The position numbers were made by a program, and so were the translations under genes. Below, piece after piece: positions 11,986 to 41,409 of a stretch of 64,000 bases of DNA (its first letter is position 1; each line of letters opens with the position of its first letter). Source of the stretch: Stegostoma tigrinum (taxonomy: Eukaryota). The notes beneath the pieces were generated by a model that was given only the letters and a program-made list of their open reading frames with translations, searched no databases and was not told the DNA's origin. The DNA is taken from contig NC_081361.1 of the NCBI RefSeq assembly GCF_030684315.1, positions 15,427,861-15,491,860 on the forward strand. The letters are read 5' to 3'.

Positions 11986-12910
11986 ACAATTGAAGCTCTC
12001 CAAAAACTGACACTTGGGTGATTTTAGCTAAGGTTCAGCCCTATATGTTTACATCTATAATCTTGTGTCTATAAATAGTTTGTATCATCGATAAACTTCA
12101 AGACTTGTAGAATCATATGACCGAAGGTGCTCTTCAGCCCATTGAACCTGTACCACAAAAAAAATACCATCCCACTTTCCCAGAGTGCGCTCATAGCCTT
12201 GAAAGTTATAACATTTGCTCATGCAAGTTACATGGACTAACATATAAAAAAGGCACAAAGTATATTAGGTTCAAGCACAGAAGGCAGGAGCACAAGCCAG
12301 ACCAATGATTAATTAGCAGAAGGTTTATACTGATTAGTAAATCATTTACTTTAACCAAGGCTTAAAACAATTTTGTTTTTGATAGCATACTGTTAGGATG
12401 ATAGCATACTGTTGGGATGCTCAACAAGCTATCATCGGATGCTTTGTTCACAAATTGAAGATTTTGTATGATGGACTCATGAACCAGGCAGAGCAGTAGA
12501 AGCAGAATTGAGGTGCACTCTGGGGAGACTGCAAGGCTCCAGATCTATGATGTAGGCTGAGAGGTCGAGAACCACAGAGAAAAGTCCACTAAAATCACAG
12601 AAAGAGAAGGAAGCACCATTTCAGCCATTTTGAAATGCTCCCTTTGTGGCCAAAGATATTCATTAGAGAAAAAATACCCAACACTGGGACTCAAATGGTT
12701 TCTCTGTGGCAAGACAGGTAACTTTTTAGATCCCAACATCCATTGAAAGGAGGAGGCTGGAGCAATTTTACAACAGTTACAGAATACAGGAAATTGAAAA
12801 TGAAGAAACTGAAGCTGAAGTTTTCCAAGGCAATATAAAAAGACCCTGATAAGGGTGTCTGTTTGATAAGACTGGAAGTCAAACAATTTTGGACAGAAGG
12901 GCTGGAGTCA

Positions 12911-13008
12911 AAGATAACAAAGTGTGGAGCTGGATGAACACAGCAGGCCAAGCAGCATCTTAGGAGCACAAAAGCTGACGTTTCGGGCCTAGAGCCTTCA
13001 TCAGTAAA
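12911..13008 (-). mobile_element. Miniature PLE insertion (family A), single arm, 14-bp TSD
   Basis: TSD AAGGGCTGGAGTCA at 12897-12910 and 13009-13022; body nearly identical to 19593-19686. Confidence 0.9.
12977..13004 (-). ncRNA. Minimal hammerhead ribozyme motif
   Basis: Minus strand CTGATGA-A-GGCTCTAGGCCC-GAAA-CG-TC; core intact, stem II has one mismatch relative to other copies. Confidence 0.55.
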
Positions 13009-13183
13009 AAGGGCTGGAGTCACTGTCTTAGCAGATGACTTGGAAGGGCTTAAAGAATTTGAAAATCAGCAGTTTAAATTAAAACTACAAGGACCAGGAG
13101 GGAAAGTCCTTGAAGTGAATGACTCGAATACTACAATACTTAAAAATTCAAACAAAGAAATCAATGAAGCTCTTGTAGACTCT

Positions 13184-13635
13184 TAGAATACGTTACAGAG
13201 GTATTCTTCAGCCCATTGAGTCTGAGCCACCAAAAATATACTATTACCTACATGAGTCTCCTTTCCCACAGTGCTTTCCTTGCCTTGAAAGTTATGACAT
13301 TTGAAGTGCTCATGCAAGTATTTCTTACAAGGATATGAGATATCCCACCTTAACTACCCTCCCTGGCAGTACGTTCCAGAACAACACCATCTGCTGGGTG
13401 AAAATGTTTTTCCTCAAATCCTGCTTAAACCTCCTGCCTTTCACTTCAAAAGTATCTTTGACTTCTTGTTTTGACTCTTCGACTAAGAGGAGCAGAAACT
13501 TTCTGTCCGCTCGATCTTGCAGGCCTCTATAAGGCTCCCCCTTCGACCTCTCTGCTCTAAAGTAACCATTCCTGAATTTATCTGGCCTCTTTTCACAGCT
13601 AAAAATGCCCCACCCTAAGGCAACAACCCACCTGG
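13184..13635 (-). mobile_element. CR1 LINE 3' fragment
   Basis: ORF text EVKGRRFKQDLRKNIFTQQMVLFWNVLPGRVV is the CR1 ORF2 end motif. Confidence 0.85.
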
Positions 13636-14916
13636 GAGAATACAATTAATTAAAATGGCGTTTGTGTTCTTTCTTAAGCTGGTTCCAGCATCCTAGACTG
13701 TTGTTTAACTGAATATCAATCAATTGGAGTCAGACGAACTTGACTGGACCAGATGGAATTAATGTCTCCTGATGATCCATCTTTCCAATTGATTTATTTT
13801 TAATTGCATCAGATATCTGGAGAACCTTTTCTTTTCATCTATATTTAATGAGTGATGACAGATGGATAAATTATTTAAGACAGAGACATGCAAGACTAAT
13901 AAAATCTCCTTCCTCTCTTGTCTATTTCTACTTCAGAACAGGCAAGAGTGAACCTGAAGCTTACCCCATTCATAAAATTGGTCTTCTGGCAATGCCATCC
14001 AACCAATTAAATGCATAGTAGAGCTGTATTCAGTTTGGCCCGACAGAGAAAATATTTGACCCTTCACTTCCAGTTTAATGGCCTTTTCCTACAGCTTGTT
14101 GCAATCTCTTTTATTTTGAAATAGAGTTGATTGTTACTGCTGTGGTATTTTCCAAGAAGACCACTGCTAGCTCTTTGTGATATTCGTCACCTCTGCTAGC
14201 ATGTGCTACTTTGTAGGGGTAGTGTGAAGTAAATCTCTTCCACTAATTTGCCTTTGCTTTGTCTTGGGCCAAGCCATTAATCAATCTTTGAAGATACGCC
14301 ACTACCATAGAGTATCTACATAAAATGAACTTAATAGCACTATTTACAGCAACATTTGGTCAGGTATAATGACCGGGTCCCTAAGGAGATGGTTTGCTTC
14401 CTCAGAAAGTTAGAGTAGCACTCTTTTTATTGCAAATTCTATTTCATAGAATCCATGCTGTTTTGGAACAACCCAGACATTGACATATAGCTCACAGCAG
14501 CCGCGAAATAATTTGGAGTGCATTACTTTCTTCAACGAAATAAGGATGCATTTTTCCGCACAGTTTAGAGTGAAAATTATTTTGCACATTTTATGGGTCA
14601 CAGGACTGACAGAGCTCTTGGAAATTATTGCCTTTCATTCACTTTTGTGCTAATTAAGCTGATGGATTTTAGCACAAAGTGTGCATTTCTCTGCTCTTGA
14701 ATGTAATATTCGTGGGTCAAAAATTCCCTGATTAAACATTGTGCCAATTAGCTACAAGGTTAGTGCTCTGGTTTTATTTCTTAGAAGGCATTTGGGGTGA
14801 AATTAGTTTACATTAGCAGTATAAAACTGCCAAACAATAAATTCCCACCTTGTTTTCTAACTTAGCGTGCTTTCTTTTCAATTAAAGTCAATCAAAATAT
14901 GGTGATTTGTAAAGTT

Positions 14917-15263
14917 GGGGGAGGCAATGGCCTAGTGGTATTATCGCTGGTCTGCTAATCCAGAGACCCAGATAAAATTCTGGAGAGTTGGGTTCAAATC
15001 CCACCACAACAGATGGTGGACTTTGAATTCAATAAATATCTGGAATTAAGAATCTAATGATGACCATGAATCCATTGTCAGAAAAACCCATCTGATTCAC
15101 TAGTGTCCTTTAGGGGAGGAAGCTACCGTCCTTGCCTGGTCTGGCCTACATGTGATGCTAGACTCACAGCAATGTGGTTGACTCTGAACTGCCCGCTTTT
15201 CAATTATGGATGAGCAATAAATGCTGCCAAGCCTGTGACGCTCACATCCCATTAATGAATAAA
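14917..15263 (+). mobile_element. tRNA-derived SINE with LINE-derived tail
   Basis: A-box TGGCCTAGTGG, B-box GGTTCAAATCC; 3' GCAATAAATGCTG..CACATCCC..AATGAATAAA resembles the end of the LINE at 54000-57150. Confidence 0.8.
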
Positions 15264-15700
15264 TGGGGAAAAATTCCAATTGTTACAGGTTCCAAACACT
15301 TGTACAGAGGTGTAGAAGGAAGTTGTGTGCTTTCTGTTCTTCATACAGACAAATGTAGGCCAATATGTCAAATATGAGATTGTTTTCCAGGTTTCTGATC
15401 AACACTCAAAATGCAAACATAAAACTAGAAATGATCACTTGGGTTGGGTAAGAGTATCATTTAGTGAATGTGCAAACTTTTAATTTCCCAGTTCAGTTAA
15501 GAAAGGTGCGGGATCAAGTGTCAGTGTTGCTGTGGGTGAAATTAAGCGTGTGCGAGGCAATGCTAAGAACTGTGTAGAAGATTTGGCTTTATGGGCCATT
15601 CAGTTCCTTGGATAAATAATCCTTTGCTCTCATGAAGAAAACAGGGAGGAAAGAGTCAGTTCTCTTTTAGTTTAGGAGAAAACAAAACAGAATTGGAAGC

Positions 15701-15924
15701 GGAGATAGTAGGAGCTGCAGATGCTGGAGAATCTGAGGTAACAAGGTATAAATCTGGATGAACACAGCAGGCCAAGCAGCATCAGAGGAGCAGGAAGGCT
15801 GATGTCTTGGGCCTAGACCCTTCTTCCGAAAGAAGAAGGGTCTTGGCCTAAAACGTCAGCCTTCCTGATCCTCTGATGCTGCTTGGCCTGTTGGGTTCAT
15901 CCAGCTCTATACATTGCTATCTCT
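15701..15924. mobile_element. Miniature palindromic PLE derivative (family A-related)
   Basis: Two inverted arms meeting near 15825; TSD GAATTG(G/A)AAGC at 15690-15700 and 15925-15935. Confidence 0.85.
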
Positions 15925-16141
15925 GAATTGAAAGCATTCAACTTCTGTGGGGTATTTATAAAATGAGAGCACAACTAAGTTGAAAGAAACCTAATGGCAA
16001 TTTTTCTTTTCTAGTGCAAGGTATTGTATGATGTTATTTCCCTCTTCATCACTAATCAGTGTACAACTTGTATCCTTGTGAAAATATATTGTTCAAAATA
16101 ATTGGAATAAATTCTTCACAATCATACACATTTGCCTATGT

Positions 16142-16412
16142 TCATAGAATCCCTACAGTGTAGAAGCAGGCCATTCGGCCCACTGAGTCCGCACTAACTG
16201 TTTCATCCAAGGACCACCCTCTACTCTATCCCTGCACTTCCCACCCTCGACACCATGGGGCAATTTAATGTGGCCAGTCCACCTAATCTGCACATCCTTG
16301 GACTGTGGGAGGAAACCCAGAAAACCCGGAGGAAAGCTTTGCAGACACGGGTAGAATGTGCAAGCTCCACACAACCAGCCGCCTGAGGCTAGAATCGAAC
16401 CTGTGCCCCTGG
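16142..16412 (-). mobile_element. HE1-like V-SINE
   Basis: Minus-strand GGTTCGATTCTAGCCTCAGG and GTGTGGAGCTTGCAC core, GGGATTCTATG tail. Confidence 0.8.
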
Positions 16413-17279
16413 CCAAGTCTGAGTCTTTGTAACAGTTTAAGTGTCTTAGCAAGAGGTATGACTGCAACATAAGGAAGTACATGTTTAGGTGAGTGAGCAG
16501 AAATGATCTGCAGTTGGCTGCTCGCCAGAGCGGTGAACATGTCATAACCCACCCCCAAGGCAGGCGGGGCCTCAACCTATCCCAGAGGTAGGGACACTAG
16601 CACTGCACCACATGAATGGTGCAAGCAATGACGATCATGGCTTCAAAAGGAAATTAGAATGGATACATATAGAAATAAAACTACAGGGCCACATGGATAG
16701 AGTACATGGAATGGAATTGGCTGGATTGTTCCATGAATAGCTGCCATACATTCAACAGACTGCACAGCTTTCCAGAACACACAAAATGTGATAGCCTGGG
16801 AGCTTGTGAAACCAGCTACCTTGCTGCTGCACAGGTTACATGCATGCGCTACCAATGTCCCTTTCGACTCTTTTCAATGGCCAAAACAAATTAACTATTG
16901 AACTCAGTTAAAAAGTGATATCTCCCTTAAAAGGGGGCCTGTAACAAAACTCAAATGGTTGTAGAAAACGTAAAGTTAAATTTAACATGTAATTGTGATG
17001 AGACGTAACACATCCCAGCCTTTGCACGGCCCACTGTTGTCAAAGGCACCATGCTCTCTTTTTTGTAACACTGAGCATGGATGTGTGCAGGGGAGTGAGG
17101 AAGGCACTGCAATTACAGGACGCCTGACATCGAAACAGTGGTCACTGCAGAGCTAAATCATTGGCATTCCTCAAAACTCCGTGTCGCATCTGGCATCTCC
17201 TTCTACCGTATAAAAGGGAGCACCTCTTACTTTCCTCTTCTGCTTCCCGAAATCGCAACCATATCCTTGGGCCTTTTTC

Positions 17280-18050
17280 TCTTGACACCCTCAGGCGACC
17301 AGTTCAGACAGTGAGCAAACACACTATGAAGAGATGAATGATGAAGATGTGGCAGTAACACTGGATTTCCCATACTCAGCCCCCAGCTCAGATATTAAGA
17401 ATGTATGCATCTGACAGAAAAGGTGGGACAAAGGTGGCAAGAGTCTGATAGATTGCAGGCAAGACAGTGGGTACATATGGCATGGATGCTTCTTTCTCAG
17501 AGTGGCCTTACACCAGGGTTCCACCATAGAGGTTTCAGATGAAGATTTCAGTGGGGCGGCCTGCAGAGAAACACTGATGTATGTCGGCAATGGAATACTT
17601 GCTGCATTAGAAGCCTGCCAGAAAAGATGCAGTCAAGGTGACGGAAGTGGAAGCCATCCAACACCAGCTTGGTACATGGCTAAGAACAGAGAAAAAAGGC
17701 TTGCAGTGTATCACAGCAGTCTAGTAGTCCGTCCTACATTAGATTACTAGCATAGTTTAGGAACTTTTCTAGTCAATTGACAGTGATTTCGTGGATCTCA
17801 AACGCGCTGTTCTCTCTCAAAAACTCAATATTCATCCACCTACATCCATCCCTCTGCCAGGGCTCTCTGTTGGCTAGCTCAAGCTGCTGCTGCCCATGCT
17901 GAGATAAACACAGCCAGGCCTTCAATGCCAAGAAATGCTTGGGATTTGCGGCCTTTTCTACTGCAAGTCAATTGACTTCACTCATCCAAGCAACAGCCGA
18001 AGTCTGAGGCAGACTTAATGAAAACATGCATTAAAGGAATGTTGAAGAAT
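17280..18050 (+). mobile_element. Probable second (accessory) ORF region of a decayed Harbinger element
   Basis: Broken acidic/Ser-rich reading (EVSDEDFSGAACRETLMYVGNGILAALEA) lying tail-to-tail with the transposase remnant at 18380-18870; assignment is by position and recollection of similar shark repeats. Confidence 0.4.
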
Positions 18051-18379
18051 AATGATAATATATAACGCACTCATTTATAAAATTGGATTGGAATGTTCAT
18101 TTTATAGCAGATTTTGTTTTTACCTTGTGGCTAAGCAGTCACTGTGATCAACAATGACAGAGGGGAAATTGAGTTTGTGCTTATCAGTATCACTTACAGA
18201 TAGACAGCCAGGCAGAAATTGCCTAACTTGCCTCTTTCCTCTCTCTTCCAATTCCGTTTGTTGTCTGCTACACAACTGGGTGACAAACCTAGGACCCTCC
18301 AACAAAGCTGTTGTTTGTTTTGCAACATGAAACTGACCACTATAATTCCTGATACCTGCTCTGCAGAATGAGTCATGTC

Positions 18380-18870: not shown

Positions 18871-19658
18871 ATGGTTATGAATGACTCTTTCACTGAAGTC
18901 TTGAAGTCAACAAAAATCTTATCACCTGCCACACCACTCTTTTTTTGCAAAATAAAAGAAAACACCTAACAATTATACAATTGAGGGGGGAAATAAACAA
19001 ACAATGGCTAATCTGGAACTGGCCAATTGACCACTTAAGTAGTATTATGGGGGATATTCCTGTGACTTTACAAGCTGTCAGCTACGTGGTTTACAATAGG
19101 AGGAGACAGGAGCATCAAGATCCAAAATGGTATTGCTGACATCAAAAGAACATGCAATGCCCTGAACTGACTGCTCTATAAACTTCTATCAGATCTTTAC
19201 TGCCGATATGCAAACATCTGTACCAATATTAGCTGTGTTGCAATTTGTGCTGAATATCTGTTGTATGCCATGGATGCCATTTTAGAATTCCGCATTGAAT
19301 CACAACAACCAAAAAAAGAAGCGCTCATGAGTTCAATTTCTCACACAATTAGCATGAGAATTAGGAGTATTGGACATTAGTGCACAAGGACTTCAATCAT
19401 TGGACGATCGAGAAATGTGGAATAGATTCTAGGGATTTGAATTTGTTACTGTGGATGTAAAGAAAGAAAGAATCTGACAAACAGTTCATCATTTAACTTC
19501 CTTATGCCTCACCAGCTCTGCCAACAGCATCACAAAACAACAGGCTAATGGATGTTGCAGAGATAATGGGAACTGCAGATGCTGGAGATTCCAAGATAAT
19601 AAAATGTGAGGCTGGATGAACACAGCAGGCCAAGCAGCATCTCAGGAGCACAAAAGCT

Positions 19659-19686
19659 GACGTTTCGGGCCTAGACCCTTCATCAG
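19659..19686 (-). ncRNA. Minimal hammerhead ribozyme motif (left arm)
   Basis: Minus strand CTGATGA-A-GGGT CTAG GCCC-GAAA-CG-TC; ACGT palindrome in place of stem III; GUC triplet. Stem I is short. Confidence 0.7.
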
Positions 19687-19910
19687 AGAGGGGGATGGGG
19701 GGAGGGAACTGGAATAAATAGGGAGAGAGGGGGAGGCGGACCGAAGATGGAGAGTAAAGAAGATAGGTGGAGAGGGTGTAGGTGGGGAGGTAGGGAGGGG
19801 ATAGGTCAGTCCAGGGAAGACGGACAGGTCAAGGAGGTGGGATGAGGTTAGTAGGTAGCTGGGGGTGCGGCTTGGGGTGGGAGGAAGGGATGGGTGAGAG
19901 GAAGAACCGG

Positions 19911-20549
19911 TTAGGGAGGCAGAGACAGGTTGGACTGGTTTTGGGATGCAGTGGGTGGGGGGGAAGAGCTGGGCTGGTTGTGTGGTGCAGTGGGGGGAGG
20001 GGATGAACTGGGCTGGTTTAGGGATGCAGTAGGGGAAGGGGAGATTTTGAAACTGGTGAAGTCCACATTGATACCATATGGCTGCAGGGTTCCCAGGCGG
20101 AATATGAGTTGCTGTTCCTGCAACCTTCGGGTGGCATCATTGTGGCAGTGCAGGAGGCCCATGATGGACATGTCATCAAGAGAATGGGAGGGGGAGTGGA
20201 AATGGTTTGCGACTGGGAGGTGCAGTTGTTTGTTGCGAACTGAGCGGAGGTGTTCTGCAAAGCGGTCCCCAAGCCTCCGCTTGGTTTCCCCAATGTAGAG
20301 GAAGCCGCACCGGGTACAGTGGATGCAGTATACCACATTGGCAGATGTGCAGGTGAACCTCTGCTTAATGTGGAATATCATCTTGGGGCCTGGGATGGGG
20401 GTGAGGGAGGAGGGTGTGGGGACAAGTGTAGCATTTCCTGCGGTTGCAGGGGAAGGTGCCGGGTGTGGTGGGGTTGGAGGGCAGTGTGGAGCGAACAAGG
20501 GAGTCACGGAGAGAGTGGTCTCTCCGGAAAGCAGACAGGGGAGGGGATG
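19911..20549 (-). pseudogene. PLE ORF C-terminus (Cys linker plus GIY-YIG endonuclease), left arm
   Basis: VVYCIHCTRCGFLYIGETKRRLGDRFAEHLRSV..RLQEQQLIFRLGTLQPYGIN; 1-nt frameshift near 20410 separates it from PCNRRKCYTCPH. Confidence 0.9.
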
Positions 20550-20550
20550 C

Positions 20551-21357
20551 GTCTCCCGCATTTCCCGCGACACATCCCTCACACCCCGCCCCCGCCACAA
20601 CCGCCCCAAGAGGATCCCCCTCGTTCTCACACACCACCCTACCAACCTCCGGATAAAACGCATTATCCTCCGACACTTCCGCCATTTACAATCCGACCCC
20701 ACCACCCAAGACATTTTTCCATCCCCTCCCCTGTCTGCTTTCCGGAGAGACCACTCTCTCCGTGACTCCCTTGTTCGCTCCACACTGCCCTCCAACCCCA
20801 CCACACCCGGCACCTTCCCCTGCAACCGCAGGAAATGCTACACTTGTCCCCACACCTCCCCCCTCACCCCCATCCCAGGCCCCAAGATGACATTCCACAT
20901 TAAGCAGAGGTTCACCTGCACATCTGCCAATGTGGTATACTGCATCCACTGTACCCGGTGCGGCTTCCTCTACATTGGGGAAACCAAGCAGAGGCTTGGG
21001 GACCGCTTTGCAGAACACCTCCGCTCAGTTCGCAACAAACAACTGCACCTCCCAGTCGCAAACCATTTCCACTCCCCCTCCCATTCTCTTGATGACATGT
21101 CCATCATGGGCCTCCTGCACTGCCACAATGATGCCACCTGAAGGTTGCAGGAACAGCAACTCATATTCCGCCTGGGAACCCTGCAGCCATATGGTATCAA
21201 TGTGGACTTCACCAGTTTCAAAATCTCCCCTTCCCCTACTGCATCCCTAAACCAGCCCAGTTCATCCCCTCCCCCCACTGCACCACACAACCAGCCCAGC
21301 TCTTCCCCCCCACCCACTGCATCCCAAAACCAGTCCAACCTGTCTCTGCCTCCCTAA
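20551..21357 (+). pseudogene. PLE ORF C-terminus (end of RT region, Cys linker, GIY-YIG), right arm
   Basis: RIPLVLTHHP..AFRRDHSLRDSLVRS..PCNRRKCYTC..VVYCIHCTRCGFLYIGETKQRLGDRFAEH; premature TGA at 21139-21141 where the left arm has CGA. Confidence 0.9.
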
Positions 21358-21581
21358 CCGGTTCTTCCTCTCACCCATCCCTTCCTCCCACCCCAAGCCG
21401 CACCCCCAGCTACCTACTAACCTCATCCCACCTCCTTGACCTGTCCGTCTTCCCTGGACTAACCTATCCCCTCCCTACCTCCCCACCTACACCCTCTCCA
21501 CCTATCTTCTTTACTCTCCATCTTCGGTCCGCCTCCCCCTCTCTCCCTATTTATTCCAGTTCCCTCCCCCCATCCCCCTCT

Positions 21582-21609
21582 CTGATGAAGGGTGTAGGCC
21601 CGAAACGTC
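21582..21609 (+). ncRNA. Minimal hammerhead ribozyme motif (right arm)
   Basis: CTGATGA-A-GGGT GTAG GCCC-GAAA-CG-TC. Confidence 0.7.
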
Positions 21610-22869
21610 AGCTTTTGTGCTCCTGAGATGCTGCTTGGCCTGCTGTGTTCATCCAGCCTCACATTTTATTATCCAGGCTAATGGATGTTGTTTGTTTACT
21701 TGATGCAATGTTTCTCAATTGTCATCAGCAGTACTCACAGAAATTGTAATAAGTGAATGTGAAGTGTGTTAACACGATGTGCAAAACTAATAACTTTAAC
21801 CTCAGATTTTGAGAGTCAAGACACCTTGGCACAAATCACTTCACACTGACTCCCTATTATCAACTGATTGAATATTGTCCAAATTACAGAATTCAAGGGA
21901 GAAGTAGCATTTCACAATTATCTCCTATTTCTCAATTAGCACTGGTAAATGAGAGTGCAACAGTGTTACAAGACTGCAAAAGTGGGAGAGATTGTTACGT
22001 GTGGAATTTGACTAAGTTCATCAGTAAGTGGGACAGTTTCAGTGATAGGGACCATCAGTGGAAAGTGCTGAACGAGTTAAAGAGGTGCAGGGCAGCCGAT
22101 TGGATTTGTAGCAGAAGAAAACTCTATGATCAGAACCTAAATACGACAATAACATTGATATTATAAGAGGATGGAATTTGGAGCAACTCTGAACAGGCGA
22201 TAAATGAGAATGAAAAAAGAATGAGAAGTCAATCCATAAGTGGGGTTTTGTTTCAGTGTTCAGAAATCAATTCCCACCTAAAGCTTATTAAAACTGGAAG
22301 AATGTAATGTCTTTGACAACTGACCTTACACTTCATTTCAATCTCTGAAAACACCCTCTACCAGTAGGTGGAACTGTCCTCATTACCACAGACTATGGTC
22401 TTCACAGCGAGGAGGGAGGATGACTTTTCTTCCAGTTTTTAATTTTTCTCCTTCCTCCTACTCAGGAAATAATAATGACCCAAATCTATTCAACCAGTGC
22501 ACATTCAGTAGGTATGTTGAATATTTCAGAAGTTGATGTTGTTTGTAAGTCACCAATGGAACGTGCTAACCTTGCCATTGCTTCAAGATCTGTAACTGAT
22601 CTATTATGAACTTCAGTGTCAAAAAGTGTTGCCTGTTCATTTGTTTATTGCTTTAGGAAAATAATTAGCTACTACAGCAGTAATATATATGTTCAATGCA
22701 ACACAATCTGTTGCTTAAGATGGTGGATCTGAAAGAGTTTGTTTAATTTGAGTTATATTTCCCTCAATATGATGATTTCTTCGGGTAGAGAATATGTCAG
22801 TTGAGTATGTGGTCCCAACTGAGACCAATTGACATTTCTGGCTTCCTATGGTATTATGTAATTACCCAT

Positions 22870-23283: not shown

Positions 23284-23351
23284 ACTGATCAATGTAATTT
23301 TTAACCTATGGTGATCACGCAGTAAACTGCCTTCTATTAATCCTCCCTAGG

Positions 23352-23533
23352 GTAAGTAAGGACTGCAGATGCTGAAAAACAGAGTCAATAAACATGAAGC
23401 TTGGCAAACGCTACGGGTCAGACGGCATCAGTGGAGCAGAAAAGTCAATGTTTTGGACTGAAATCTGACAAAAGGTTTCTTTCCTACTCCTCTAATGTTG
23501 TCTGACCTACTGTGTTTGTCCAGTTCCACTTTG
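23352..23533. mobile_element. Older miniature palindromic PLE derivative
   Basis: GGACTGCAGATGCTG tail, then GGTCAGACGGCATCAGTGGAGCAGAAAAG mirrored by CTTTCCTACTCCTCTAATGTTGTCTGACC. Confidence 0.6.
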
Positions 23534-23771
23534 GTTGGAGGTGTTGATGAGCAGCTCAACACAAGGTGCCTGTGGAGACAGATGTGTCCTCTCTGGTTCC
23601 TGACAGTCTTCACTAATTATTCCTAACAGTCAAATGTAACCTGTAAGTATTTCTATCATGCAATAAATTCTCTCTCATTAGCAAAGACAAGTGTCTTTTG
23701 TAGTAAAGACTTACTGGGAGTAAATCGTTCCACCACAATATATCCTCAGCCTAAGCCTAAAAAGAAAGAAT

Positions 23772-23887: not shown

Positions 23888-26354
23888 AGGAGGATTGGTG
23901 TCAACACTATGACCCAAGCAAGTGTTGCTTGTAGTTGATAAGGCAGAGCCCAATTTGAAAATCCTCACAAAGTTTAAATAAGTTCTTTGATGTGCAGGGG
24001 ATTCCCAGGCTCCAATAAATGAAAGTTGAGTTCGATGTTACTTATCTATATGACATTTCTTCTATTTCTCCCCCACATATTTAAAGGTTTTTCTTTCTCA
24101 ATCCCATACCTGCAGGGACATTTGACAAATTTGACCAAGCCTTGAAAAATTAAGAAGCTCCTGTTCCCATCATTCTCATGTATTTGAATTACCTCCACCT
24201 GGTAGTCAGCAGCTGGTTAGAATTGATCATTGCCAATCGTAAGCTCATCTTTACCTACCTCTATCACAAGAATGTCATGCCTGCATCGTCAATCAGTCTG
24301 TACTAATTACATCATTTAATGTCGCAATTGATGTAGAAATTTTTGCAAATGCAGTTGAGAGGTAGTTATTCTTTAGAGAGAATAAGTCTAAATATGAAAA
24401 TTGGAATAAATAAGGCACGTCTTTAAGCTCAGGCCTTGTTAAAAGCAGTTTCTAAACATGAACCTTCTCAAGCTCGAGTGATGAGGATTCTTCAACCAAC
24501 TCATCCATAATAGGAAGCTGAGGGAATGTGTCAAACAGTGACTGTGAGATTTTGACTCAGGATTACAGTTCATGGATTATTCAGCCAATGGGACATCTGT
24601 TTAATGCTGACAATGAACACTGATTTCAGTGGGGCAACTTTGCTAATAGTAGCAGCAAGCAGTCTTTTGATCGCTATGAACATAGCTCATAGATATCTAT
24701 TGTCACAAACAATTTGGAATAATATCAAGTCAGTCCTCAGGACCAAGTTAAATTCTTCATAAGGCCTGCATTCTCTGGGCCATGTTTTCCAAAAATGCAA
24801 CGTGGGTGACTTATAGTGACCAAAAAGGCCACCTGATTCTGGCCAAATGTAGCAGTGCACTCAAAGGCAAAACTTCTGAGTTCATTAGCACTCATCATTC
24901 AGAGGCAGTTTAGTTGACATGTCTGTTGGGTGGAATCAGTCTAATTCTCAAAGTATCTGCTTCTGAGGCATAGGGCTCTTCAGCTCTCTGCAAGGGTACT
25001 CCATTTGAAAACACCCCATCTGAAATGGACTTTTTGCTCCTTGCCCACTAATGTGTACAGAACTGTTTAAATGGTTTATCTGCATTACATTATAAAGGTA
25101 TATTAACAAGAGATGACATAAAGTATAACTGAAGAACAGGAGAGGAAAGTTGGATCAAAACAATTTCAATGATTCTCTTGAAAAGTAAACTATAAAGCTT
25201 TGTTTTTACTTCTGTATTCAAGAAAAATTCAATAACTTTAACAGTGAATAATGTCCCCAAAATACCTGAAAGGCTTATAACAGATTTTTATTACCAAGTT
25301 AAAGATCACTTAGGCTGAAAATACATGGTAATATCTTCTAAATTGAAAGTCTATAAATTTTGAAATCTATAAGCCAGATAGAAAAAAAAACCTTGGAGGA
25401 AAATTGCAGTTGTGTAATGATTTTCATTAAATCTTGCCTGGTTTCCAACCATATTACACCAGTCATCCACATCTTTCAATTTTCTGTTTTATTTCCTTTC
25501 CGCTTTAGTGATATCTCTTTCCCAATTCCATTGTTCTTACCTTTTGCCAAAGTATGTGACTGAATTGATTGCCAATCACTTTTGCTAATCATGAAACGCT
25601 GAAAAAATTAACTGTCCACAGGACAATTGATTCAGATGAGACACACTACGGAATCAGTATAGAAAAACGCAAATGAATAAATGCACTCTGATTAATATCC
25701 GTAAGAGCTCTCTGAATGCAATAACTACACCCAGGGGCTGACATACAGCAAAATCCAAAAATAGAGAAAAGAGATGAATGAAAGGTTTGGGTGCAGAATG
25801 ATCATGGAAAGATGTTTCATTAAGAGAGTGCCAACATCAGGAATTTTGTGCCAGTGGGTACTCGAGGCAGATAAGTGATGCATTTGCATGTTTCATCTTT
25901 AATGGCAGGTGTGATTTCAGCTGGGAGACTTGCTACTGCTGTATTTTATGAAAATAGTAAATTAAACTAAATAAGCCAATTATATCATTAAAAAATTACA
26001 TTAAAAATAGTTAATTAACTAAACATACACATAAATATTTAAATTGTAGGACAGGTGATGTGTCAGAAATGGAGAAGGAAACATAAAAATTAATCTCTCA
26101 GCACCAACAAGCCATGCTAGCTCACTTCAAACACGATGAGATCCAAAATAGAGAATGATCTAAAATGTCCATCAGCATGGACTCAACAGAAAAAGAGCAC
26201 GCCATTTTGGACAATAATTTTTTGTTCTAACTCAGTACATCAGCTGTTTTCTATGACTCGAGTGAGAATCTGTCTCATTGAAGCTCAACGGCCTGTTAGT
26301 CAAAGAATCAATTGTTTGAATAGGCTAATTCAAAGAACATCCTTGGATATTTTT

Positions 26355-26453
26355 TTGAAGAAGGGTCTCAGCCCGAAATGTCAGCCTCACTGCTCCTCTG
26401 ATGCTGTTTGGCCTGCTGCGTTCATCGAGCTCTACACCTTGTCATCTTAGAAT
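26355..26453 (+). mobile_element. Miniature PLE terminal fragment, single arm
   Basis: TGAAGAAGGGTCTCAGCCCGAAATGTCAGC..GATGCTGTTTGGCCTGCTGCGTTCATC; decayed hammerhead core. Confidence 0.75.
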
Positions 26454-28549: not shown

Positions 28550-28674
28550 ACAGCAAGTATTGGAGGAACATAATAGGTCTGGCAGCATCTGCTGAGGGAG
28601 AAACAGAGTTGATGTTTTGACTGCAATATGACTCTTCTTCAGAAGATCTCCAGTATCCGCAATACTTTGCTTTA
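28550..28674. mobile_element. Old miniature PLE derivative (family B-related)
   Basis: GGTCTGGCAGCATCTG..GAGAAACAGAGTTGATGTTTTGA..CTTCTTCAG resembles 57216-57278; followed by the CAGTATCCGCA tail in the opposite sense. Confidence 0.55.
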
Positions 28675-29692: not shown

Positions 29693-30521
29693 TTTAACAA
29701 TTGAAGGGTTTAGCTTTACGCCTGTTCGGTCTTCATGCAGTTCTTTCCATTGACCAATGACACGCTTACCTTCTTCCCTTTACATAATCCTGTCCAGTCT
29801 TCCAAAAACTTAACATACCAAGGCAGTAATGCATCTGGTACTCTCAGTCTGCGTGCAAAAGTCAGGGTGTTAGAGTATTGCATCTGAGCAGCAGATTCAT
29901 TCAGTTGTGGAGCTCTAAATAGTAGGTATGTATCCATACTATGTGGAGTGGAGTGGAGTGGACTGAACTGGTTTAAGCATTGCATGGATTCAGCAAGGCT
30001 GAAGCAAGATCAAAGAACAGGGAACTTCTCTTTATGCACATTTTGATGATAAAATCAGCAAAAAGAGTAATAATTCTATGAAAGATAGCAATGGGTAAAT
30101 GATTTCATTAGCACTGAAGTAGTAGCCAGTGAAATCCATTCATGGTTAAGCAAATCTTTAATGAGAAAAGCCCAATGACATTATACGGGGAGCATGGAAT
30201 GAGGTGAAATCAGGCTGTGATTGACAAAATGCTCCAAAACATATCAGCTGGCCAACAAAATTTTAAAAGTTAGAGGTATTTTCTTAAAGCATACAGACAG
30301 GTTCATGTGGGAATGGTTTGCGGCTTTGAAAAATTACTGATAGCTAAAAGGATAAAGAGTTCAAAAGTGGAAATCAGACTTGGTGAGTTTATAAATAAAT
30401 AAGGTTGGACATTAAACTAAATTAAGAATAAGGATGAATCAACACTCCAACCATGGAGAATGTTAACAGAATCCTCATCAAACGGGTCAGAGCCTCACAG
30501 AAGGAAGACTTGACAAAGAAA

Positions 30522-30705
30522 TAACAAGGTGTAGACCTGGATGAACGCTGCAGGCCAAGCAGCAGAGGAGTAGGAAGGCTGATGTTTTGGGCCTAGGTCC
30601 AAAACGTCAGCCTTCCTGCTCCTCTGATGCTCCTTGGCCTGCTGTGTTCATCCAGCTCTACACCTTGTCATCTCAGATTCTCCAGCGTCTGCAGTTCTTA
30701 CTATC
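30522..30705. mobile_element. Miniature palindromic PLE derivative
   Basis: Arms meet at GGCCTAGGTCC (~30595); TSD ACTTG(A/T)CAA(A/T)GAAA at 30508-30521 and 30706-30719; tail on the right arm only. Confidence 0.85.
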
Positions 30706-30816
30706 ACTTGTCAATGAAAAACCAGTTGAGAAGCTTAATGGGCAATCAAACTGTTTATGGACGTAAACTAGTCCAGACGTGTGCTATGATCTATTAGAAT
30801 AAAACACTCCAGTGAA

Positions 30817-33508: not shown

Positions 33509-33764
33509 AATTTTTTTTTAAAAAAACAAAATCTTTTGCTCAACTGAGAAAGAAGGAAGACAGTTTGTTGTCACAGGATTTAGAATGCTCAGAAATTGGA
33601 ACGTTCCTTAAAGAGTTTGGGAGGCAGTGACTGTTGTGGAATGATCTGAAAGTGTTACTCAATGGTGAACCAACTGAGGATCTTGAAGGAAGAGGATGTA
33701 ACATCCAGATTTCCCTCAAAGAATTGCTGTAACAATGTCCATCAGATCAATTAACCTCTGGTTT

Positions 33765-34068: not shown

Positions 34069-35561
34069 TCAACTACTTCTTGCTTAATATGTGAGCATGT
34101 TTTTCTTTACAAGACCAAACAGCCCTGTAGGTAACAAAATACCAAGAGGATAGTAGCAGCAAACTTGCCACACGATGAGTTGCACACACGTGGCAGGCGG
34201 CTGAGCAGCATGACAGATTTCACCCAAAATACAACTGTGTCATGAATATTTTGAAAGTGTGTCAATGGTTATCCTGCGCTGAGGCAGAAGGGTAGAGTTG
34301 ACCTCACAATCAGATCAGCTATGATCTCATTGAATAGCATAGCAGGCTAGAGATATTGAATAGCCTGCTCTTGTTCTTGATTTGTACACACGTATGCTAT
34401 TTGTCGGGGTCTATTGAGCGCAAATTTCTTACTAGATTTTCTTCATTACAACAAAGGCTACAACTCAAAAAGCATATCTATGCCCTATCAAACATTTAAG
34501 ACATCTAGTGGTTGTGAAAATTGTTGGTTTAATTCTCTCTCTTTCTTTACTGCTTGCAGGTTATAACCTGTTTCTCTAACAATGTTAGCACACAGGCAGT
34601 GAAGAAATTACATTTAATATAAAATAGAATGGTGGTGTATTCAAGATACTGATGTGTTTGAAATGTTATAATTAATTTTCTTTCAGTCTGACACAGAGAT
34701 TATATGACGATTATCTTAATTAGAAGTGAAAGTAAATAAGGCTATTTTTTTCAGCTAAAAATGTTTATTTCGCACAAAATGTTTTGGCAATAATTAATGG
34801 TTTCCCTTAACTAATACCATTTTCTTTTTTTGTCTTAGAAAGAAGTATTTAATGCAGTTTTCTTTGACTCAAAGATAGCAGTGTTTCACCTGTTTGACTT
34901 CATATTTGCATGGCATTACAATATCTCTATCGACTCAGTCACTACCCTTTCCTGCTTTGTGCCATTACTGCAGGAGTATTGTGTAGTGACACATTAATCA
35001 TTAGTTACTACCTAAAATCAGGAAAAAGTATAATACAGCAGTTACAAATGTTTTATTCATCCAAAAGTTCTCATTTGAAGAGATTTTCTTTGGGGAATTC
35101 CAGCTTCTGCAGATTTCCAAATAAAAGACTGAATAATCAGTCAGAGAGATATTAACATGTCTCATTTCTTTTCCCCCCTCATAAGTTACAGCCTCAAGCC
35201 ACATGTTAAATAAATTCAAGGAAACTATATTCAGCTAAGGCTGATTGGAAAGGTAAGTCAGTCACCATGTGAAAAGAGCTCAATTCAATTAAGGACATCT
35301 TTTTTCAGGCTAAATGAGTAAATCCACTCATTGGCGTAGTAATGAGCTATCCAGGACAGTAGAATTGCTGCGCCAATATACAGCCTGCTGACTGCAACCA
35401 AAAACAAAAGCAGTGTTGTTAATGCTTGCATATAAAGGAGGAAAACTTGGTAATTCAAAGATTCTGTTTTTTGTTTTCCATGCAGGTATCCCTGGCAGGG
35501 GCAACATTGATCGCCCATCTGGCATTACTATTGAAATTCAGGTGGTGATTCATTGCCCAAA

Positions 35562-36460
35562 TGGCAGCTGAGCATCAGTTGGGAGCACCCTTGCCTTTAA
35601 GTCACAAGATCCTATGTTCGAGTCCCAATCCAAAGATTTCAGCACAAACATCAATGTTGACATTCCAGTATGCCACTCTGTCAGAAATGCTGCCTTTTGA
35701 ATGGTGGATGCAGAAAGATACCATGGCGCTATTTCGCACACACACAAAAAAGAGTGATCCCTGGCTTTGATTGGATTTGATTTATTATTGTCACATGCCC
35801 CTAAGTTTCATTTTGCATGCTGTAAAGGCAGATCATAACATACAAAGATCGTAGGGTGACTGAACAGAATGAGGAGTGCGAAGTTATAGCTGCAAAGAAG
35901 GTGCACAAGAAGCAAGATCTACTTTCAATTTCAAATTTGGGAGGCCCATTCAGAAGTCTACTAACAGCAGGGAGTACGCTGTTCTTGCATCTGTTGGTAT
36001 GTATGTTTAAGCTTTTGTACCTTCTGCATGATGGAAGAGGTTGGAAGGGATTACAACTGGGGTGGGTCTTTGTCGATGTTGGCTACCTTTCTGAGGCATT
36101 GAGAGGTCCAGTTGGAGTTAATGGATGGAAGGTTGGCTTGTGTGATGGTCCGGGCTATATTCGCCATTTTCTGTACTTTGTTACAGTCCTGGGCAGAGCA
36201 GTTTTCATACCTGACCATGCTGCACCCAGATAAAATGCTTTCTATGGTGCATCTGTAAAAGCTGTCTTGGCTAATAGTTCTCTCTCAATCAGCATCACAA
36301 TTAGTCATTCTTACATTCACGTTTCTGGGAGTTTGCTATGTGCAAATTAACCTCCGTGTTTCCAAAGTACAATAACACATACAATTTGTTAGTCCTTAAT
36401 TGGTCTTAAGGCAGTTTGGGACATCTGGTGGCCAATAAAGTGCTATTTAAATCCAAGTCT
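35562..36460 (+). mobile_element. SacSINE1-like DeuSINE split by a Rex1/Babar insertion
   Basis: 5' half at 35562-35765 (GTTCGAGTCCCA, AAAGATACCATGGCGCTATTT); 3' half at 36263-36460 (GGGAGTTTGCTATGTGCAAATT..GTGCTATTTAAAT). Confidence 0.7.
35766..36262 (-). mobile_element. Rex1/Babar LINE 3' end
   Basis: TTTGATTGGATTTGATTTATTATTGTCACATG tail; reverse-complement homologue of 22870-23283. Confidence 0.8.
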
Positions 36461-37450
36461 CCCTGAATTTACTTCTAGATGCTTGAGCGGCTCTGTACAT
36501 CATTTCAGGCGGCATTTTAGTTTGAAATATTGCAGTGAGTCTATGAATTCACTGACCAGGTGAGGATTGCAGATTTCCTGGAATTATGTGAATGAACCAT
36601 ATGATTTTCTACAATGATCTTACAAGAAAGGATCACAGTTATTGATACCAAAAGCATTAGACAAAATCTTCGCAGCCCCTGAACAGTGAGATCCAATGAG
36701 AAAATCAGTGAGATGTCCAGCAGGCTCTTCTTGATGTTGGGATCGAAAAGACTCAGTTTGCAACCAAGTGTTGGATCGTAAGATGGATTCTTACGAGATG
36801 GCAGCAAGAGGCCTATTTTTATATGATCATACTCATTACTACCTCTTCTCTCATACTGCTAGATACTGAGAATTCCCAACATGAAACACACAGCAGTACC
36901 CTTGTTACTCCAGCTTACTGTTTGTGTCTCCAGATTTTCATCTTAGACCTCTGGTGTCAACATTGCAGGGTAGTCTCTGTACACATATTGCTGCATTTTA
37001 ATTTCTATAGTGGTTAACAGTGAAGCCTTTGCAAGGATGATGGGGAAGATGTTGCCAACATCAAAGGAAAATAGCTTACTGTGCAAGACAGAACCAGGCA
37101 CTATTCATTAAGCAGGAATCTGGTGATAAAGGTTGCTCAACCTTTGTGACTATCAAGGCAGAAAAGAAGACAATTAAACAGATGTAACTTGTCTCAACAG
37201 CCCTTGGATGGAAGATCTTAGGGTTACAAGGGTCCTGGACAAGTGTTTCTGGAATATTCATGAGAAAATATCTGAAAATAAGTGTTTAAAAGCATTTAGT
37301 AGTGTAGCCTAGGAGCAACCATCATAAAAGCTCAGAGTTCAGTGAGGAAGGACAGACTCAGCTGAGAGACTGAAGCCTGGCCAGCTGACCCTCTGTGCGG
37401 GTAATACATAAGTCTCAGCCGTGAGTCTGAGGCAGCTTTATTTTTAAACT

Positions 37451-37644
37451 CAGAGATAATGGGAACTGCAGATGCTGGAGAATCCAAGATAACAAAGTAT
37501 GAAGCTGGATGAACACAGCAGGTCAAGCAGCATCTCAGGAGCACAAAAGCAGACGTTTCGGCCCTAGACCCTTCGAACGTCAGCTTTTGTGCTCCCGAGA
37601 TGCTGCTTGGCCTGCTGTGTTCATCTAGCTCCACACTTTGTAAT
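37451..37644. mobile_element. Miniature palindromic PLE derivative (family A), young
   Basis: Left arm close to 19558-19681, right arm inverted; TSD CTTT(A/G)TTTTTAAACT at 37436-37450 and 37645-37659. Confidence 0.9.
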
Positions 37645-38189
37645 CTTTGTTTTTAAACTGATGTGTTTGATGCTGTAGCATTAAGCCAACTAGGAAATAA
37701 ATAAAGAAGTAGACTGCAATAACAGCACAGGCTGTAATCATTGTGTTCACTGGTATTGACTCAGACAGGGTAATGGACAACAACTGCCTGTGCAGTAACC
37801 ATTCCACTCCATTTCCATGGATCTTGGCATCCAACATGTACCAGTCTCACTGCTTAATCATGGCACATCTCCGATCCACGTAAGGAACATTTCTACACTT
37901 TAATGCTGCACTTTGGAAAACATTGGCACCTTTCATTGAAATTATTCTGATCTAAGTTGGCTGTGCAGAAGCCCTGGTTCATCCTGAACATGATTATCAA
38001 GGACCATTGTTGCAGAGGTAGTTCAGAAACTGCCTTTTGTTGAACGGAGTTTGTCAAAAGAATTTTGTTAGTGACTTCCCATTCTTCATATCACTTGATC
38101 CAGGGGATAATGACAGGTGGATGATATTCAGGAAGGTTGATCCCCAAGGGATGACAAAATTGAAAGGAGGTAGTAGGGGGATTGAACAT

Positions 38190-40163
38190 TATAGACGATA
38201 GACAATAGGTGCAGGAGTAGGCCATTCAGCCCTTCAAGCCGGCACCACCATTCATTATGATCATGGCTGATCATCCACAATCAATATCCTGTTCCTGCGT
38301 TAACTCCAGAACCCTTGATTCCACTATCCGTAAGAGATCTATCCATCTCTTTCTTGAAAGTATCCAGAGACTTGGCCTCCACTGCCTTCTGGGGCAGAGT
38401 ATTCCATATATCCACCACTCTCTGGGTGAAGACGTTTTTCCTCAACTCTGTTCTAAATGGCCTACCCCTTATTTTTAAAACTGTGTCCTCTGGTTCTGGA
38501 CTCCCCCATCAGCGGAAACATGTTTCCTGCCTCCAGAGTGTCCAATCCCTTAATAATCTTATACATCTCAATCAGATCCCCTCTCATCCTTCTAAACTCA
38601 AGTGTATACAAGCCCAGTCACTCCAATCTTTCAACATATGATAGTCCCGCCATTCTGGGAATTGACCTCGTGAGCCTACGCTGCACTCCCTCACTAGCAA
38701 GAATGTCCTTCCTCAAATGTGGAGACCAAAACAGCACATAATACGCCAGGTGCAGTCTCACCAGGGCCCTGTACAGCTGCAGAAGGACCTCTTTGCTCCT
38801 ATACTCAATTCCTCTTGTTATGAAAGCCAGCATGCCATTAGCTTTCTTCACTGCCTGCTGTACCTGCATGCTTGCTTTCATTGACTGATGTACAAGAACA
38901 CCTAGATCTCGTTGTACTTCCCCTTTATCTAACTTGACTCCATTTAGATAGTAATCTGCCTTCATTTTCGTGCCACCAAAGTGGATAACCATATATTTAT
39001 CCACATTAAACTGCATCTGCCATGCATCTGTCCACTCACCTAGCCTGTCCAAGTCACTCTGTATTCTCATAACATCCTCCTCACATTTCATACTGCCACC
39101 CAGCTTTGCTTCACCAGCAAATTTGCTAATATTACTTTTAATACCTTCATCTATATCATTAATGTATATTGTAAACAGCTGCGGTCCCAGTACCTAACCT
39201 TGTGGTACCCCACCGGTCACTGCCTCCCTTTCCAAAAATGACCCATTTATCACTACTCTTTGCTTCCTGTCAACCAGCCAATTTTCAATCCAAGTCAGTA
39301 TTTTGCCCCCAGTACCATGTGCCCTAATTTTGCCCACCAATCTCCTATGTGGGACTTTATCAAAGGCTTTCTGAAAGTCCAGGTACACTACATTCACTGG
39401 TTCTCCCTTGTCCATCTTCAAAGTTACATCCTCAAAAAATTCCAGAAGGTTAGTCAAGCATGATTTCCCCTTCGTAAATCCATGCTGACTCTGACCTATC
39501 CTATTATTGCTGCCCAAATGAGTCATAATTTCATCTTTTATAATTGACTCCAGCATCTTTCCAACCACTGACGTCAGGCTAACTAATCTGTAATTCCCTG
39601 TTTTCACTTTCCTTCCTTTCTTGAAAAGTGGGACAACATCCACCAACCTCCATCCACAGGAAATGATCCTGAATCTGCAGAACATTCGAAAATGATTCCC
39701 AATGTATCCACGATTTTTAGAGCCACCTCCTTAAGTACCCTGGGATGCAGACCATCAGGTCCCAGAGACTTATCAGCCTTCAGACCTAACAGTCTATCCA
39801 ACACCATTTCCTGCCTAATATAAATACCCTTCAGTTCATCCATTACCCTTGGTCCTTCAACCACTATTACATCTGGGAGATTGCTTGCGTCTTCCCTAGT
39901 GAAGATCGATCCAAAGTACCTATTCAACTTTTCTGCCATTTCCTTGTTCCCCATAATAAATTCACTCATTTCTGTCTTCAACGGTCCGATTTTAGTCTGA
40001 ATCATTTTTTTTTCTTTTCACATACCTAAAAAAGCTTTTACTATCCTCCTTTATATTTTTGGCCAGTATTCCTTTGTACCTCATTTTTTCTCTGCGTATT
40101 GCCTTTTTAGATATCTTCTGTTGCTCTTTAAAAGCTGCCCAGTCCTCCGGCTTCCCGGTCATC
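38190..40163 (-). mobile_element. CR1 LINE, ~2 kb, reverse transcriptase domain, internally disrupted
   Basis: NYRLVSLTSVVGKMLE, QHGFTKGKSCLTNL, YLDFQKAFDKVPH, GVPQG, LDRLGEWTDAWQMQFNVDK. Confidence 0.95.
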
Positions 40164-40203
40164 AACGTGTCATAATGGAATGCAGCTTTCGCATTTAGTT
40201 AAT

Positions 40204-40374
40204 ACTGTGTGAAGCAGGCCAAGCAGCATTAGAGGAGCAGGAAAGTTGATGTTTCAGGTCAAGACCCTTCTTCTCGACCCAAAACATCAACTTTCCTGCT
40301 CGGTCTGCTGTGTTCATCCAGCTTCACATAGCGTTATCTCAGATTATCCAGCATTGGCAGTTCCTACTATCTCT
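40204..40374. mobile_element. Miniature palindromic PLE derivative
   Basis: GAGCAGGAAAGTTGATGTTT mirrored by AAACATCAACTTTCCTGCTC; direct repeat GCATTTAGTT at 40191-40200 and 40375-40384. Confidence 0.8.
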
Positions 40375-40700
40375 GCATTTAGTTCATCTGCAGCTGTATG
40401 AGGAAATGATGTTTGTGAGGACAGAAAGTGGGATTTGGGTGCAGAGTTCCAGTTATTTTCCATATTATCACATTCAGTTGAAGTGTCAACAAAATAGACG
40501 TAAGATGCTCCAATAAGATAAACACTGAGCTCTCATTCCCATCACTTCCTGTTCATTACCTAGTCGCCTATGATCAAAGACATGTGCATGAAATGAATTG
40601 AGCTTAGCCTAATGATAAAGTAACTTGGCAAGGTTAAGGTTCACTGTTAAGGAGTATCTATTCAGCTGAAACACAGGAAAGCTGACACAGATTAAACCAA

Positions 40701-40861
40701 AACTGAAATTACTGGAAAAGAAGGGCTGAGAGAGGGTCACTCAAAGCGAAATTTTAAATTTGATTTCTCTCCATGGATGCTGCCAGGCCTGCTGAGTTTT
40801 ACAACCAATTTCTGTTTTTGTTTCTGATTTACAGCATCCACATTTCTTTCATTTTGTTTTT
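40701..40861 (+). mobile_element. Miniature PLE derivative (family B-related) with a short inverted arm
   Basis: Body resembles 58169-58299; TSD ACAGA(T/C)TAAACCAA at 40687-40700 and 40862-40875. Confidence 0.75.
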
Positions 40862-41409
40862 ACAGACTAAACCAATACCTTCATTCATGAGGAATTTGAT
40901 AGACCTTTAGTTCATGTCAATGTTGCATCAAGCGTGTGATTGTTCATCAAGAGGCAGACAATTCTGAGGGCATGTTTGAACCACGAGATTTTCATTCCAA
41001 AAGTGATCATGACTGTCTTAAATCAAAAACTTGCAATGCCATTCATTGGTAGACTTCTAACACTTCAATTTACTTCATTAAAGCAAAAGTCAGCTTTGAA
41101 TGACAGCATCTTCGGTGGTTGGAATTTCAAGTAGAATGTGAATATAGCAATCAGCTTAAGAAATATATGCCTCTCAGATTTGACTTTTCTCAATTTACAA
41201 ACAATAAACTGGTAGCATGAGCTCTTTATATGTGATGTCAATGTCTTGAGTATTACAATATCATATGACAACAATGTCTAATAGCAGTTCAAAAAACAAT
41301 TCCATTCTTTCCTATACCACTTCTGACCTTTCTTGCACACTGCATATCAATCTATCATTCCTTTTATTTCCAAGTTGATATTGTCTTCTAACTTCACCTA
41401 ACGAGCACG

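Follow-up and report, generated by a model that had tools for sequence, protein, structure and literature searches.

Penelope-like elements (PLEs) of the Penelope/Poseidon type carry inverted pseudo-long terminal repeats (pseudo-LTRs, or pLTRs) with a tail of 30-40 nt at one end, and their palindromic junctions have been explained by self-priming on an antisense template (PMC8557442, PMC3846280; all papers are cited here for the sections drawn on). There is no settled account of the way in which the tandem and inverted ends of PLEs are made (PMC2377424, PMC8557442). Transcription is known to start within the pseudo-LTR (PMC2377424, PMC8557442, PMC3846280). When the anole Poseidon element (PAc) inserts in vitro, both target strands are cut and extended, two internal reverse transcriptase (RT) start sites bracket the tail, and no hammerhead cleavage is needed (PMC11167929). 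Here we analyzed a window of 64,000 nt from Stegostoma tigrinum (contig NC_081361.1, positions 15,427,861 to 15,491,860, forward strand) that carries ten short inserts derived from the 3' end of such an element, and we followed the family through the 3.2-Gb genome by pattern matching, from which all genome-wide counts derive.

We hypothesize that these mini-inserts are run-off stubs. On our reading of the sequences, to which we assign a probability of roughly 0.68, both target strands would prime the synthesis of complementary DNA (cDNA) from two internal sites of the element RNA, and this cDNA would run off the 5' end of that RNA. The base at which the arms of the inserts stop, which we call the wall, is likely to be this 5' end, that is, a transcription start site (TSS) located 4 nt upstream of the hammerhead ribozyme core. 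Arms are numbered on the sense strand from the wall (+1), which is window position 19690 on the minus strand. The features of the long copy in the window that frame this numbering are:

19558..21673, no single strand: long head-to-head PLE insertion, with the tail arm on the minus strand and the tail-less arm on the plus strand
19558..19595, minus strand: tail of ~37 nt between the 3' end clusters, which would correspond to two RT start sites
19655..19686, minus strand: predicted minimal type I hammerhead, called by hand (CUGAUGA at +5, stem II, GAAA, palindromic ACGU)
19690, minus strand: wall (+1), the first base where mini arms end, a probable RNA 5' end and TSS; mirror at 21578 on the plus strand
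19713..19720, minus strand: TATTTATT, a putative TATA-like box starting at -30 from the wall; mirror at 21548-21555 on the plus strand

The ten mini-inserts, each with its target-site duplication (TSD), are:

8031..8170, minus strand: mini 8029, tail arm to +16 followed by short remnants of a second arm; TSD 11 bp with 1 mismatch
12911..13008, minus strand: mini 12911, tail-less monomer, ~+98 to +5, with 4 nt of filler; TSD 14 bp, exact
15701..15924, no single strand: mini palindrome 15701, tail arm to +1, tail-less arm from +7; TSD 11 bp with 1 mismatch
23352..23535, no single strand: mini 23352, palindromic, old and diverged; no TSD found
26352..26447, plus strand: mini 26355, tail-less monomer, +2 to +97; no TSD found
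28550..28655, no single strand: mini 28550, diverged, sister-family; no TSD found
30520..30706, no single strand: mini palindrome 30522, arms overlapping within stem II (+17/+13), the right arm with the tail; TSD 14 bp with 2 mismatches
37451..37645, no single strand: mini palindrome 37451, tail arm to +10, tail-less arm from +27; TSD 15 bp with 1 mismatch
40204..40375, no single strand: mini palindrome 40204, +7/+21, partly deleted; TSD 13 bp with 1 mismatch
40701..40861, no single strand: mini 40701, diverged sister-family, degenerate hammerhead; TSD 17 bp with 2 mismatches

All ten loci had been reported in an initial annotation of this DNA as mostly palindromic miniature PLE ends, and all were found where it had placed them. 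The TSDs it described at 12911, 15701, 30522, 37451, 40204 and 40701 were confirmed. Its statement that four further copies have no clear TSD holds for 23352, 26355 and 28550 and fails for 8029, and its description of the family as mostly palindromic does not extend to 12911 and 26355, which are single arms. The TSD loci of the window scored 8-17, the weakest (score 8) being 8029, 15701 and 30522; with the same search method, 2 of 400 random flank pairs reached a score of 8 and none of 400 exceeded it. The reference matched only 43 bases at 28550 and 23 bases at 40701, and these two look like members of a diverged sister family.

The arms of the palindromes are paired in a regular way. One arm with a tail and one without it were observed in 114/116 young mini-palindromes, and 102/116 had a TSD, most often of 13-17 bp (69 at 14-16 bp; overall range 7-22 bp). 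The 3' ends of the arms fall in two clusters ~36 nt apart, at +94 to +100 and at +129 to +138. Either arm may reach further in the 5' direction (the tail-less arm in 38/106, the tail arm in 28/106, with equal reach in 40/106), which excludes snap-back of one cDNA as the general route. The 106 junctions comprised 28 blunt joints, 35 with overlaps of 1-6 nt, 15 targeted stem-II folds and 28 with filler; as the set of 116 palindromes includes loci targeted by their junction (15 at stem II, 7 at the cleavage site), these frequencies do not represent genome-wide rates. The two arms of one insertion mostly carry matching subfamily variants (at one site, 3 are discordant where 42 would be expected). 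At L082 and L176 the arms disagree at 4 and 5, respectively, of the 6 diagnostic sites, indicating that two templates were used at least sometimes. These discordant haplotypes, together with the longer tail-less arms, favour priming on both strands over self-priming. Arms were identical over 62 nt in 34/98 mini-palindromes, which must therefore be very young. Some tail arms reach +147 to +153, past the usual end of the tail; our pattern selected for them, and a third start site is no more than a possibility.

The 5' ends of the arms accumulate at the wall. Of 193 young arms, 64 end within 10 nt of it (+7 to -3), against 4 of the 88 surviving young arms in the next 25 nt (odds ratio 24); two pile-ups, at 132 (38 arms, due to a reference indel) and at 116 (22 arms, taken as the same artefact), were counted as read-through. 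When only unselected DNA was considered, 13/35 arms ended near the wall and 1 in the next stretch. The ends of 46 long arms were scattered from 186 to 3,588; these lengths were chained from arms scoring at least 120, with 46 satellite hits in L128 and L264 dropped. Across the genome, 89,000 matches read through and 10,679 have their end precisely at +1; of the latter, 3 of the 100 listed are read-through copies with a point mutation. In the older subfamilies, a tally by eye put the end of 17/22 arms at the wall or short of it (a script filter gave 20). Breakpoints do not show the smooth spread that the initial annotation had set against its own account, and a peak is present.

We also counted young palindromes genome-wide by strict patterns, using the gap between their two cleavage-site anchors. 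Around 25,000 young mini-palindromes matched, and their central gap was 0-30 nt in 2,016, 31-60 nt in 14,800, 61-90 nt in 7,021 and 91-120 nt in 521. Most of the 100 matches listed for the 61-90 class had a gap of 61-66, while a gap of 64 is expected if both arms stop at +1, which the junction sequences confirm. Among 62 palindromes with gaps above 30, the longer arm stops 26-35 nt beyond the cleavage site, with 5 exceptions.

What, then, could the wall be? The motif TATTTATT was seen at about -30 in nearly all read-through copies among the matches listed, across subfamilies, while there is variation in the bases from +1 to +4. At the wall, CCA(+1)TTTC stands in older subfamilies, which fits the initiator consensus, and CCC(+1)TCTCT or CTTTTCT in younger ones, a TCT-type motif. 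The promoter geometry at the wall points to a start site. In addition, the base joined beyond +1 is a C in the cDNA of 27/52 flank-joined copies, against 25% expected (p 4e-5); this tally combines 14/26 non-palindromic copies scored by eye, with a check of TSDs, with 13/26 scored by a regular expression, in which 8 classes were corrected by eye. In full-length L1 insertions, an extra G at the 5' junction reflects the cap (PMC11702581). Copying also stops repeatedly at the same place: 75 copies begin at +1 and extend into the open reading frame (ORF), and 22 of them then return to the wall region inside one insertion. Several of these double stops fall exactly at +1, and most lie within TSD-bounded insertions. 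Together, the extra base and the repeated stops point to a physical RNA end, which we infer to be capped.

In five insertions (L204, L205, L208, L222 and L298), past the wall, the cDNA adds a C and then restarts earlier on the same template; these are mis-registered template jumps. A splice acceptor at the wall, a candidate prompted by the end of an intron in D. virilis (PMC4209133), was rejected as there is no AG before +1 and no common exon after it. We also set aside +200 to +250 as RNA 3' ends, because CU-rich microhomology to the cDNA end explains the landing sites equally.

Our model suggests the following order of events. The mini-inserts would be 95-135-nt copies of the PLE 3' end, one arm with and one without the tail, inside a 14-16-bp duplication. 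Both target strands would serve as primers for the RT of the element, at two internal RNA sites. A transcript that begins in the upstream pseudo-LTR would contain two copies of these start sites, one at 95-135 nt from the 5' end and the other 3.5 kb further downstream. Long, 5'-truncated arms would result from priming at the downstream copy, and the upstream copy could yield no more than a stub, resembling retroviral minus-strand strong-stop DNA. Both cDNA ends would then be joined, blunt or via 1-6 nt of microhomology, with or without trimming, and self-complementary spots (stem II and the AGCT at the cleavage site) would produce minor junction peaks. Sometimes the run-off cDNA end would re-anneal downstream and copy back to +1, giving tandem hammerhead repeats in one insertion.

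Several observations weigh against this proposal. The samples come largely from one contig, and part of them was selected on the 3' body. An end exactly at +1 is seen in only 13 of the 64 near-wall arms; the others are spread over ~10 nt, from +7 to -2, so that trimming or microhomology has to be invoked. Older arms read through less often than young ones (5/22 versus 88/193), so some age-related loss of long palindromes is possible. About half of the flank-joined copies have no extra C, and RTs can add a C wherever they run off a template. Each of the five insertions in one sample that continue into the ORF and have an upstream hammerhead extends beyond the wall, and just 75 ORF-continuing copies begin at +1, compared with 2,030 tail-ORF junctions (different patterns, hence not a strict ratio); most long copies would consequently come from templates or jumps extending upstream of +1. 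The Penelope of D. virilis has a TATA-less internal promoter (PMC2377424). Finally, the wall is the start of a C tract in every subfamily among the matches listed, and its position would fit a roadblock equally well.

This last point is the core of one alternative, in which the RT would stall at the 3' edge of the C-rich tract upstream of the hammerhead while the RNA continues upstream, with a poly(C)-binding protein or a G-rich cDNA structure proposed as the stalling agent. A leaky block would also let most arms pass, as the genome-wide excess of read-through matches shows. We nevertheless regard this stall as unlikely: it does not predict the extra C, the fixed position of TATTTATT or the initiator-like bases at +1, and a cDNA quadruplex is possible only ~20 nt beyond the wall, a stretch with few arm ends. 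Another account would have long palindromes collapse after insertion by hairpin-driven deletion, leaving their centres as mini-inserts. Long head-to-head copies are indeed common, and the lower read-through of older arms agrees with such loss. However, single arms end at the same wall, a third of the mini-palindromes are very young by the identity of their arms, and collapse leaves the extra C and the double stops unexplained, which makes this account improbable.

The initial annotation favoured a role for the ribozyme, proposing that the hammerhead fold or its cleavage sets where reverse transcription stops or switches and that the palindromes fold back in or next to stem II. The segment from +5 to +33 has the features described for the minimal type I hammerheads of PLEs (PMC4209133): CUGANGA, an extra base before stem II, G10.1-C11.1, GAAA, a palindromic 15.2-16.2 and NUH. 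Cleavage is predicted between 19659 and 19658, i.e. after +32. An Rfam search gave no hit at the gathering score, the fold of +1 to +138 was not more stable than that of shuffled sequences (z 0.75), and the predicted monomer and dimer folds differ from the active hammerhead form. In support of ribozyme involvement, stem II centres recur, 8/193 arms end at the cleavage site, one template jump lands there (L285), and the exact cleavage-site fold occurs at 672 loci, a number above those that match lengths suggest for two other self-complementary sites of 4 nt (roughly 40-80 and 200). The two fold-back centres quoted earlier, GGCCTAGGTCC at ~30595 and GACCCTTC joined to GAACGTC at ~37570, are present as well. 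In the window, though, only 30522 folds at the stem II loop, and the exact stem-II-centred junction gave 88 strand hits genome-wide. The cleavage-site and stem II classes make up a few percent of the matched palindromes, the 0-30 gap class is small beside those at 31-60 and 61-90, and an arm ending at the main peak can arise only after the RT has gone through the cleavage site and the entire core. This peak is located 5' of the ribozyme core. Minor peaks occur at two self-complementary spots, stem II and the cleavage site, and stem II was not upheld as the main fold-back. The cleavage class is further confounded by the microhomology of the self-complementary AGCT, only 2 bp of stem I can form from the sequence, and cleavage is dispensable for insertion in vitro (PMC11167929). 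As the main cause, the ribozyme is contradicted by the gap counts, and we rate it marginally below the collapse of long palindromes; cleavage may explain the small class of 672 loci.

Least probable, in our opinion, is that a hairpin or circular mini-RNA was amplified as a unit in a MITE-like or retrozyme-like manner (MITE, miniature inverted-repeat transposable element), although some junctions recur among palindromes and separate promoter-retaining deletion units share a junction at two loci (L284 and L294). The initial annotation had proposed to look for shared centre junctions across loci; we found 70 junction types in 116 loci, with the same junction on several subfamily haplotypes, which speaks against amplification as a unit. 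So do the frequent longer tail-less arms, the discordant arms of L082 and L176, and the lack of the -30 box in the mini-inserts. From the earlier suggestion of a short hairpin RNA mobilised in trans, we retain that a short stretch of RNA is probably copied in trans and drop the hairpin as the amplified unit.

The run-off model also bears on tandem copies. Head-to-tail units of 166-362 bp with a hammerhead were found inside single insertions at L293-L297 and L299 (examples of arrays are C1:140329000-140330300 and C1:104860600-104863100). L293 consists of seven units from +5 to +173, with a TSD and without the -30 box, and L294 has units from -83 to +247 and a 14-bp TSD; most arrays keep at least 56 bases upstream of +1, including the -30 box. 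The presence of arrays within one TSD suggests that they formed during insertion. By the tandem definition in bioRxiv 10.64898/2026.07.22.740005, these six loci would count as non-LTR retrozymes. A deletion unit joining +245/+247 to -83 was seen at three loci (L283, L284 and L294), with an identical junction in L284 and L294; it is possibly a true non-autonomous PLE subfamily with its own promoter.

We put forward, as a tentative extension that we hold to be somewhat less likely than its negation, a strong-stop step in PLEs. RT would start ~95-135 nt from the capped 5' end, run off, jump to the 3' repeat and rebuild a promoter-bearing pseudo-LTR; the mini-inserts would be failed jumps, and mis-registered jumps would build hammerhead tandem arrays in one insertion event. 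If true, this jump would supply the mechanism for pseudo-LTR regeneration that PMC2377424, in the section cited, calls unexplained.

The family is abundant. One 52-mer from the young subfamily has 89,947 exact occurrences in the 3.2 Gb, and 77 arms in 424 kb of unselected DNA extrapolate to ~580,000 arms if the sample is typical, so the genome total is probably several hundred thousand arms, in line with the very high copy number anticipated by the initial annotation. An older variant of the PLE end was also found in contigs of another organism, which indicates that the family is shared between species; these contigs reveal no ends and speak neither for nor against an RNA start at the wall.

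The long insertion at 19558-21673 has the same arm architecture as the mini-inserts, with an exact 17-bp TSD at 19541 and 21674, and it retains part of the coding region:

20569..21141, plus strand: GIY-YIG endonuclease fragment, C-terminal part of the parent ORF (E 0.0005; 20.8 bits, under the curated 22.6)

Elsewhere in the genome, locus L112 carries a complete 3,528-bp unit that includes both an upstream pseudo-LTR and an inverted arm. An 894-aa frame at L119 contains RVT_1 at 289-430 (E 5e-5) followed by GIY-YIG at 664-703 (E 0.0035), both matches falling under the Pfam curated cut-offs. In the long ORF, the first in-frame Met is found near +171. A single ORF that carries RT plus GIY-YIG at its C terminus, together with partial tandem or inverted pLTRs and a 30-40-nt tail, is what characterizes endonuclease-positive (EN+) PLEs. 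The parent is a Penelope/Poseidon-type EN+ PLE, the presumptive Poseidon clade name resting on domain order and architecture, and the origin of the mini-inserts from PLE 3' ends is supported.

Other repeats were noted. A second long PLE insertion lies at 57180-58290 of the window, with a young arm from 57395 and nested, inverted segments; a diverged sister-family end is located within it at 58168-58289. Decayed fragments resembling ORF2 of long interspersed nuclear elements were recognized by translation at 38618-40017 (minus strand) and 44698-45348. L128 (6950-9700) and L264 (6550-9960), both in minus-strand coordinates, contain a long minisatellite whose ~50-bp unit derives from the PLE 3' body without the hammerhead.

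The arm ends of at least 25,000 young mini-palindromes in this genome thus record steps of PLE copying. Their pairing of tail and tail-less arms links the two start sites used in vitro to two target strands in vivo, the wall predicts the RNA 5' end to the base, and the double stops and the arrays inside one TSD outline a possible route from PLE to retrozyme. For annotation, the mini-inserts should not be filed as MITEs and probably not as short interspersed nuclear elements (SINEs). A MITE would be a uniform unit with terminal inverted repeats and a short, fixed TSD, moved as DNA by a transposase, whereas these inserts have variable centres, unequal ends and 7-22-bp TSDs; of the earlier view that they look like MITEs and derive from a retroelement, the origin is supported. 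A SINE-like family would descend from structurally fixed master copies of its own that bear a promoter; the mini-inserts share haplotypes with the long copies and lack the -30 box. The window copies are inverted or single and do not form the two or more tandem units with complete hammerheads expected of a non-LTR retrozyme.

Retroviral minus-strand strong-stop DNA is a short cDNA that runs off the RNA 5' end before a jump. Unlike it, the stubs proposed here would be target-primed, with no tRNA primer. In L1 twin priming, two primed ends are also joined by microhomology (PMC11702581), but here both arms copy the same RNA stretch and not adjacent ones. Non-LTR retrozymes (bioRxiv 10.64898/2026.07.22.740005) are, like the mini-inserts, derived from PLE pLTRs, hammerhead-bearing and non-coding; the part of the preprint cited proposes local amplification after insertion, whereas the arrays here lie inside one TSD. 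Truncated PLEs likewise leave dispersed solo minimal hammerheads, some as opposite-strand pairs 100-700 bp apart, for which the portion of PMC4209133 cited offers neither a mechanism nor a map of breakpoints.

The two 3' end clusters ~36 nt apart match the two RT start sites of PAc, whose ORF starts in stem II, while the first in-frame Met here is ~170 nt past the wall; the sections of that account cited contain no RNA 5' end map or run-off stubs (PMC11167929). Nor were run-off stubs at a PLE start site found in the literature searched, with subscription papers and bioRxiv supplements outside its scope. The closest match remains the Penelope/Poseidon insertions, with which this family shares head-to-head arms, a tail on one arm, a TSD, the order RT then GIY-YIG and a hammerhead in the pLTR, and the pLTR of A. 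vaga also has a putative TATA box and initiator (PMC8557442, PMC3846280). Unlike the insertions in the described sections of those papers, the mini-inserts have both arms cut to 95-135 nt and ending at a single-base wall. The inverted-arm architecture is already known; what is new is the likely cause of the wall, together with the jump products.

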